Positions 1 through 231 of a stretch of 231 nt of DNA are shown here, piece after piece. The notes beneath the pieces were generated by a model. That model saw only the letters and a program-made list of their open reading frames with translations, did no database searches and was not told the origin of the DNA. The first letter of the stretch is position 1. Every line of letters starts with the position of its first letter. The translations under genes were made by a program, and so were the position numbers. The stretch is from Escherichia coli (lineage in GTDB: Bacteria > Pseudomonadota > Gammaproteobacteria > Enterobacterales > Enterobacteriaceae). The stretch is taken from the NCBI RefSeq assembly GCF_003334785.1, contig NZ_QOWV01000094.1, one strand, 5' to 3'.

Positions 1-15
1 ATTTTCCCGTTAACA

Positions 16-41
16 CGCGGGCAAGTAATCCGGGGCCCGCG
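16..41. repeat. GC-rich inverted repeat / stem-loop: CGCGGGC (16-22) pairs with GCCCGCG (35-41), 12-nt loop aagtaatccggg
   Basis: Seven consecutive G:C pairs verified base by base. Lies 10 nt downstream of the minus-strand small-ORF stop codon. Not followed by a U-tract on either strand, so it is not a canonical intrinsic terminator. Confidence 0.45.
26..41. repeat. copy 1 of a ~15-nt direct repeat motif TAATCCGGGGCCCGCG (minus-strand reading CGCGGGCCCCGGATTA)
   Basis: First 8 nt (TAATCCGG) are identical to copy 2 at 141-148; the GC-rich remainder matches with 1-2 indels. Spans the loop and 3' arm of the 16-41 hairpin. Confidence 0.4.
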
Positions 42-51
42 ATACCACGCT

Positions 52-129
52 CTATCGGGCGGGACGGCGCCGGTGCTCAGAGAGCAGCCTTTCCAGCTCA
101 GCGATGCGAATGAGGTATTTCTGACTCAT
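52..129 (-). CDS. small ORF, 25 aa hypothetical peptide MSQKYLIRIAELERLLSEHRRRPAR (ATG at plus 127-129, TAG at plus 52-54)
   Basis: ATG-initiated ORF in the same minus frame as the upstream ORF. GC by codon position across 52-129 is about 65/42/69%. The N-terminal 13 codons use common enteric codons and read like an amphipathic helix. The C-terminal tail uses rare codons (AGG, CGG, CCC, CGA) and an amber stop, and no Shine-Dalgarno is visible upstream (aaaaacggccATG), so it may be a fortuitous ORF or a gene remnant. Confidence 0.3.
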   Translation of the reverse strand: MSQKYLIRIAELERLLSEHRRRPAR

Positions 130-138
130 GGCCGTTTT

Positions 139-144
139 TATAAT
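139..144 (+). promoter_or_regulatory. perfect TATAAT hexamer on the plus strand with no convincing -35 partner
   Basis: Plus 139-144 reads TATAAT. At 15-18 bp spacing the upstream hexamers (tatttc, atttct, ttctga) match TTGACA at 3/6 or less, and no TG extended -10 is present (ttt precedes). It is the reverse complement of the AT-rich stretch used for the minus-strand call, so the two are not independent. Confidence 0.15.
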
Positions 145-155
145 CCGGCCCGGCG
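141..155. repeat. copy 2 of the direct repeat motif TAATCCGGCCCGGCG (minus-strand reading CGCCGGGCCGGATTA)
   Basis: See copy 1. Spans the loop and 3' arm of the 130-150 hairpin and lies 4 nt from the TAA stop of the upstream minus-strand ORF. Confidence 0.4.
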
Positions 156-159
156 TTTT

Positions 160-231
160 TTACAACATTGTCAGTGCGTTAAGGCGGGATGTTTTTGGCT
201 GACGCCAGTCCAGCTTATCGAGGAGCATTGC
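160..231 (-). CDS. 3' end of an ORF of unknown function (5' part lies beyond the window edge); C-terminal residues ...AMLLDKLDWRQPKTSRLNALTML, stop TAA at 160-162
   Basis: Minus-strand frame open from position 231 to TAA (plus 160-162). No Cys and no very rare codons. GC by codon position across 160-231 is about 54/38/58% (pos1/pos2/pos3), a coding-like pattern for this frame pair. An in-frame ATG at plus 226-228 means the ORF could instead start inside the window as a 22-aa peptide; this cannot be resolved without upstream sequence. Confidence 0.4.
   Translation of the reverse strand, partial: AMLLDKLDWRQPKTSRLNALTML

Follow-up and report, generated by a model that had tools for sequence, protein, structure and literature searches.

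The 30-nt spacer between tnpB and tnpC of the insertion sequence ISEc47 probably holds a weak sigma-70-type internal promoter, from which tnpC would be transcribed as a leaderless mRNA, together with a hairpin that would silence tnpC on read-through transcripts. The window analysed here, a 231-nt stretch of Escherichia coli DNA, is part of a defective ISEc47 copy in the chromosome of ETEC TW10722, with the minus strand as the coding strand. Support for the promoter comes from homologues of the element and from published start-site data, and not from the window alone.

Alignment of the window to an intact ISEc47, a member of the IS66 family carried on plasmid NZ_CP025918.1 (locus L001), yields two blocks at 100% identity: window positions 1-77 correspond to L001 2501-2577 and positions 74-231 to L001 3079-3236. 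The minus strand carries, at positions 160-231, the 3′ part of tnpB (the accessory gene also called IS66 orf2), a 100% match to the annotated ISEc47 tnpB WP_000624688.1, and both the sequence and the list of open reading frames place its TAA stop codon at 162-160. The annotation of intact ISEc47 puts the intercistronic spacer at 130-159, and the start of its transposase CDS puts the ATG of tnpC, the DDE transposase gene, at 129-127. PGAP annotation of identical DNA shows tnpA, tnpB and tnpC in that order on one strand, and the intact TnpC has 537 aa. Precomputed Pfam assignments for homologues comprise PF05717 on TnpB and PF13007, PF13005, PF03050 and PF13817, tnpC being DDE_Tnp_IS66. The ends of the element lie outside the 231-nt window; the plasmid copy L001 has GTAAGCG...CGCTTAC termini and an 8-bp target duplication, CGGCACTG, and the TW10722 copy (L007 3938-5973) has retained both GTAAGCG ends within 8-bp direct repeats. 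The tnpA-tnpB-tnpC order, the GTAAGCG termini and the 8-bp target duplication are features that ISEc47 has in common with IS66, IS679, ISEc8, IS682 and ISEc23, and the overlap of tnpA with tnpB followed by a short spacer ahead of tnpC is likewise typical of IS66-family elements. Among 5,426 complete E. coli genomes, 3,019 contain ISEc47 or a close relative, as do 2,867 plasmid records.

Compared with intact ISEc47, the tnpC gene in the window lacks 505 bp. The alignment places the breakpoint at 73/74, at a 4-bp microhomology (TGCT, 74-77), and positions 1-73 match tnpC nt ~562-634 on the minus strand, out of frame with the start codon. Since 505 is not divisible by 3, the tnpC frame is lost after codon 19, and what is left is a reading frame of 25 codons at 52-129 (minus strand) made up of 19 codons from the tnpC N-terminus, six out-of-frame codons and a stop, as established from the list of open reading frames and by comparison with the intact TnpC, whose N-terminus begins MSQKYLIRIAELERLLSEQ. 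The earlier note had, in one of its two readings, given this small ORF a promoter of its own; the alignment and the PGAP annotation of TW10722, in which tnpC is a pseudogene, identify it as the truncated and frameshifted 5′ end of tnpC, and for annotation the lesson is that this small ORF is a transposase remnant. Whatever the promoter does in the window, its sole product is the frameshifted tnpC remnant.

A 40-mer specific to the deletion junction was found in exactly one of the 5,426 complete E. coli genomes, the TW10722 chromosome NZ_CP035841.1, where the window corresponds to L007 4948-5178 at 100% identity. The junction had no match in the plasmid collection, a junction 50-mer had none in GTDB representative genomes or JGI metagenomes, and a junction 20-mer gave only five unrelated chance matches in these last two collections. 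Whereas autonomous IS66-family elements have an intact transposase gene, this copy lacks one and is a defective derivative of 2,036 bp (intact ISEc47 has 2,541 bp). Having kept its ends and the direct repeat CGTTTATA, it could in principle be mobilised in trans by an intact ISEc47.

The sequence elements listed in the earlier note, namely both sets of hexamers and the hairpin, are all present where they had been placed. On the minus strand the -35-like hexamer TTGTAA (165-160, 4/6) is formed by the last leucine codon of tnpB (TTG, 165-163) and the stop codon, and is followed by 17 nt (159-143) and by the -10-like hexamer TATAAA (142-137; 5/6, without the final T), which lies 7 nt 5′ of the ATG; the sigma-70 reference is TTGACA and TATAAT separated by 16-18 nt. 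Read in reverse complement, the same conserved loop gives a perfect TATAAT on the plus strand (139-144). The predicted minus-strand hairpin at 130-150 consists of a 5′ arm GGCCG (150-146), an 11-nt loop GATTATAAAAA (145-135) and a 3′ arm CGGCC (134-130) adjoining the ATG. It had been described as lying between the -10 and the ATG, but the -10 sits within the loop. The stretch at 137-165, said to be the only AT-rich one in the window, is indeed low in GC (41%, against 55% for the window), but the low-GC zone is wider, from about 113 to about 185, and is broken up by the GC stem arms. The spacer in the window, read directly, has no Shine-Dalgarno sequence in the form of GGAG or AGGA within 14 nt of the tnpC ATG.

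Taken by itself, the window gives an ambiguous promoter signal. A consensus promoter scan, which accepts a -10 only with T in sixth place, found none in the window. With a sigma-70 weight matrix built from approximate hexamer frequencies of published compilations, and therefore giving rough scores, the minus-strand TTGTAA-17-TATAAA combination reaches 10.3 bits. No site in the window scores higher, and it shares the top score among sites on both strands of the 2.65 kb scanned around intact ISEc47, but an equal or better site turns up in 12.6% of dinucleotide-shuffled windows (p ~0.13). The hairpin is similarly unimpressive in this copy: its fold of -10.2 kcal/mol (z = -1.2) is no better than that of shuffles, and its stem of 5 bp, which ends one base ahead of the AUG, is the weakest form among the variants compared. 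An Rfam scan of the window gave sub-threshold chance matches only. The hairpin was also considered as an intrinsic terminator on either strand and rejected: there is no U-run directly past the stem in the sense direction, the T-run in the antisense direction begins 5 nt after the stem, and a terminator scan of the window found none.

Start sites mapped in related elements bear directly on the promoter. Cappable-seq of E. coli O157:H7 EDL933 (NZ_CP008957) under eight growth conditions has provided gene-specific start sites (Table S5 of PMC10469882), in a paper whose text does not mention transposases or insertion sequences. The IS682 of this strain is 92.4% identical to ISEc47 across tnpB-tnpC, and its junction reads TTGTAA-aaatgtcatggccggat-TATAAA-AACGGTC-ATG, with the same hexamers and the same spacings (17 and 7) as the window. 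Its transposase has a gene-specific start site at 1088264 (+) in 8/8 conditions (PMC10469882); the RefSeq CDS of IS682 tnpC starts at 1088264, and the IS682 primary transcript therefore starts on the A of the ATG. The more distant ISEc8, whose TnpB and TnpC are 64% identical to their ISEc47 counterparts, has start sites at 346224 and 1275582, again in 8/8 conditions and with relative read scores of 9-15 (PMC10469882), and both coincide with the A of the annotated tnpC ATG. Agreement in coordinate convention was verified on the bTSSfinder record of the same paper, in which box10 position 187 corresponds to position 1311 of L116, the ISEc8 locus, and TSS position 201 to position 1325, where the A of the ATG lies (PMC10469882). 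These data show that in both elements transcription begins at the first base of the start codon, with the caveat that reads from multi-copy insertion sequences are possibly multi-mapped. The -10 of ISEc8, TAAAAT, also sits in the loop of a hairpin, here of 9 bp (ATAAGCCCG/CGGGCTTAT, z = -6.2). In both elements the start falls within the 5-9 nt past the -10 that are expected of a sigma-70 promoter.

For ISEc47 itself we infer a start at A129 from promoter hexamers identical to those of IS682. In the arrangement that we propose, the -10 would be TATAAA (142-137), placed after the 17-nt spacer and probably assisted by TTGTAA (165-160), which overlaps the last tnpB codon and the stop; transcription would start 7 nt past the -10, on the first base of the tnpC ATG, and the resulting tnpC mRNA would be leaderless. 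Such an mRNA fits the absence of a Shine-Dalgarno sequence, and would presumably be translated. The suggestion in the earlier note of a minus-strand promoter starting near 129 and acting separately from the upstream gene is to this extent upheld, through the same layout in IS682 and its start on the ATG, although in the window alone the weight-matrix score is not significant. Some features count against a promoter. The final T of the -10, otherwise highly conserved, is missing here, and the variability of this sixth position among relatives is not what would be predicted under strong selection on a sigma-70 -10; the -35 is wholly accounted for by coding constraint, and ISEc8 has none comparable at the proper spacing.

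To compare the spacer among relatives, we gathered tnpB-tnpC junctions at 80 loci on viral contigs and on 10 other contigs in which TnpB is 75-100% identical to the query, and aligned 18 distinct spacer variants that make up a long-spacer clade; a second scan of viral contigs with divergent TnpB found no further members of this clade. Spacer length across the clade is 29-31 nt. TTGTAA is unchanged in 18/18 aligned relatives, where it is also under coding constraint as the Leu-stop end of tnpB, and the TATAA core of the loop is unchanged in 18/18 variants, 6-7 nt ahead of the ATG, the sixth -10 position being A, C or T. A Shine-Dalgarno sequence is absent from all 18 long-spacer variants. In a sister clade with TnpB identity of 65-69%, the spacer has 19-20 nt and a clear Shine-Dalgarno sequence (GAGGA or GGGG), indicating that the layout without one is specific to a subgroup.

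The stem changes in sequence among these variants while its complementarity is kept. Arms of GGCCG/CGGCC, GACCG/CGGTC, AACCGC/GCGGTT and CCCGTTG/CAGCGGG are found, as well as TCATGGCCG/CGGCCATGA and ATGACCATAT/ATATGGTCAT. In the stem alignment 73.5% of cells are paired, against 21-40% in controls in which the partner was slid; 7/12 pairs have changed on both sides, and the observed covariation score was reached by 0/500 shuffles. The core stem contains six G.U and two A.C pairs, and this excess, a small count, leans towards a structure in the sense-strand RNA. In most variants the 3′ arm covers the tnpC start codon, wholly or in part. This is so in ISEc8 and in IS682, whose 9-bp stem includes AUGA (z = -3.1), and the stem in the window stops one base short of it.

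What the hairpin might do follows from where transcription begins. A transcript that starts at the ATG lacks the 5′ arm, and the hairpin can therefore act only on longer transcripts begun upstream; the idea that it modulates initiation from a position between the -10 and the ATG is not supported, for the same reason. We suggest that the hairpin would form in RNA that originates outside the element or at the promoter of tnpA-tnpB and, its 3′ arm containing the AUG in most relatives, would keep tnpC untranslated on read-through RNA, such that the weak promoter of the element itself would be the only source of transposase. In ISEc47 itself this inhibition would be weak, because its stem of 5 bp leaves out the AUG and folds no better than shuffles.

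Several of these observations could also be read without a promoter. The spacer might be an ordinary intercistronic one, with tnpC translated from a polycistronic tnpA-tnpB-tnpC mRNA by coupling to the termination of tnpB; the hairpin would then hide the AUG until the ribosome ending tnpB opens the stem, the A/U-rich loop would serve as an S1-type enhancer, and the promoter-like hexamers would be by-products of the Leu-stop codon pair and of the AU-rich loop. A covarying hairpin that takes in the AUG in most relatives suits this reading, as does a stem that starts 5-9 nt past the UAA, where a terminating ribosome can reach it, and it is also in keeping with the coding nature of TTGTAA, with a final -10 position that is not kept as T and with a weight-matrix score that is not significant in the window. 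What coupling alone does not predict is a 5′-triphosphate start on the A of the ATG in 8/8 conditions, in three copies and in two divergent subfamilies, and we regard it as an unlikely account of the spacer. Coupling and an internal promoter could coexist, and the hairpin may plausibly serve coupling along with, or instead of, the silencing of read-through RNA. If instead the inverted repeat around the -10 were a DNA operator, a dimeric protein such as the helix-turn-helix protein TnpA could repress the tnpC promoter by binding it, and the apparent covariation would be that of two half-sites changing together. The palindrome does bracket the -10, its arms do change symmetrically, and TnpA homologues have an HTH_Tnp_1 domain. 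Yet elements with proteins >85% identical have very different arm sequences; complementarity alone is kept and not sequence, and the balance of six G.U against two A.C pairs in the core is that expected of sense-strand RNA; an operator is in our judgement improbable.

The perfect TATAAT on the plus strand (139-144) had been proposed in the earlier note as a possible antisense promoter, with a rightward transcript that starts at about 151-153 and enters tnpB at its 3′ end; on this reading the antisense RNA would regulate tnpB or tnpC. Besides the perfect hexamer, its favourable feature is that the loop motif ATTATAA, and with it the antisense TATAAT, is kept in 16/18 aligned variants. Against it, two variants, L049 and L109, lose the antisense TATAAT yet retain the sense TATAA. 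The plus-strand hexamer has neither a -35 nor an extended -10, and on the same rough matrix its best pairing scores 7.15 bits, a chance-level value matched in 73% of shuffles. Published start sites likewise offer nothing in or beside the spacer: the full list for ISEc8 has no minus-strand start between 345610 and 347115, and the antisense table for IS682 gives 1089011, within tnpC, and none for tnpB or the spacer. Moreover, the start codon of tnpC would lie outside such an RNA. The resemblance to IS10 pOUT/RNA-OUT, in which a -10-like hexamer also lies on the opposite strand close to the transposase start, ends there, no antisense start having been detected beside the transposase start of IS682 or ISEc8. 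We consider an antisense promoter at this site very improbable; for annotation, a perfect -10 hexamer in an AT-rich loop does not on its own indicate an antisense promoter.

The proposed internal tnpC promoter and its hairpin have features in common with known systems. Leaderless bacterial mRNAs include that of lambda cI transcribed from PRM and that of Tn1721 tetR; like these, the tnpC mRNA predicted for ISEc47 would start on the A of its AUG and have no Shine-Dalgarno sequence. It differs from them in encoding the transposase of a gammaproteobacterial insertion sequence, and its leaderless translation is putative. Fold-back inhibition and protection against outside transcription were reportedly described for IS10/Tn10 and IS50/Tn5 by Davis, Simons and Kleckner in 1985 and by Krebs and Reznikoff in 1986. 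As in IS10 and IS50, the start codon of most relatives pairs with upstream sequence found only in transcripts begun before the element's own promoter, and only the promoter-proximal transcript would be translatable, putatively so here. IS10 and IS50 have a terminal promoter and an mRNA whose leader includes a ribosome-binding site, whereas here the promoter would be internal, between two genes, with its -10 in the hairpin loop and a leaderless transcript. The layout is apparently undescribed; in it three known kinds of feature, an internal promoter, leaderless mRNA and protection by fold-back, would occur together. To our knowledge, the standard description of IS66 elements presents the three genes as one unit and mentions neither a separate tnpC promoter nor a leaderless tnpC mRNA, and our literature search found no paper that deals with a promoter, a start site or a leaderless mRNA for the tnpC gene of IS66 elements.

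We extend this proposal more tentatively to an enterobacterial IS66 subgroup comprising IS682, ISEc47, ISEc23-like elements and ISEc8, which could share a dedicated tnpC promoter with its -10 in a hairpin loop, a leaderless mRNA and an AUG that is buried on all longer transcripts. If true, the transposase would be made independently of the accessory gene products and shielded against transcription from outside. Elements of the IS66 family are very common, and the expression of their three genes is poorly understood; a separate, constitutive leaderless tnpC transcript would mean that the level of TnpC is set independently of TnpA and TnpB, and would explain the missing tnpC ribosome-binding site in the subgroup. 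Mutations in the -10 and in the stem would offer a simple experimental handle on the control of IS66 transposition.

A number of further observations were made in the course of the comparison. The EDL933 data also assign to tnpB start sites located within tnpA, at 345610 (+) in ISEc8 (L116), in stationary phase only, and at 1087824 (+) in IS682 (L117), in 6/8 conditions, and each of the three IS66 genes may have its own start site. Antisense starts inside tnpC are recorded in 8/8 conditions in both elements, at 347115 (-, L116) in ISEc8, 891 nt past the ATG, and at 1089011 (-, L117) in IS682, 747 nt past it. An antisense transcript within IS66-family transposase genes is possibly conserved; the homologous position of these starts lies outside the window. 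The plus strand of the window also carries a 24-codon ATG reading frame (128-202), antisense to the spacer and the tnpB 3′ end, which starts opposite the tnpC ATG by virtue of a CATG palindrome and which we presume to be a chance occurrence.

The frames of tnpB and tnpC coincide in the window, where the UAA is the only stop across the 30-nt spacer (127-165, minus strand). This in-frame arrangement is probably a coincidence, because the spacers of relatives have 29 and 31 nt, and we rejected read-through of the UAA into a TnpB-TnpC fusion, the spacer varying over 29-31 nt among relatives and the stop context being UAA-A. In the sister clade, three loci (L059, L082 and L077, from the tnpB stop to the tnpC ATG at ~1525-1560) have a strong Shine-Dalgarno sequence, and by eye a different hairpin pairs this sequence with tnpC codons 3-5 (AGTGAGG...CCTCACT). 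The motif TGTAA(A/T)G is retained in the sister clade though it is non-coding there.

Finally, two viral-contig copies, L052 (~1543-1600) and L017 (~1543-1610), are interrupted by the end of another IS66-family element (GTAAGCG...), the insertion point being the AT-rich loop of the hairpin (ATTATAAAA|GTAAGCGGCTCG) in one copy and codon 6 of tnpC in the second. The EDL933 IS682 is itself located within the tnpC of another IS66-family element (L117), and IS66 elements seem to insert into one another.
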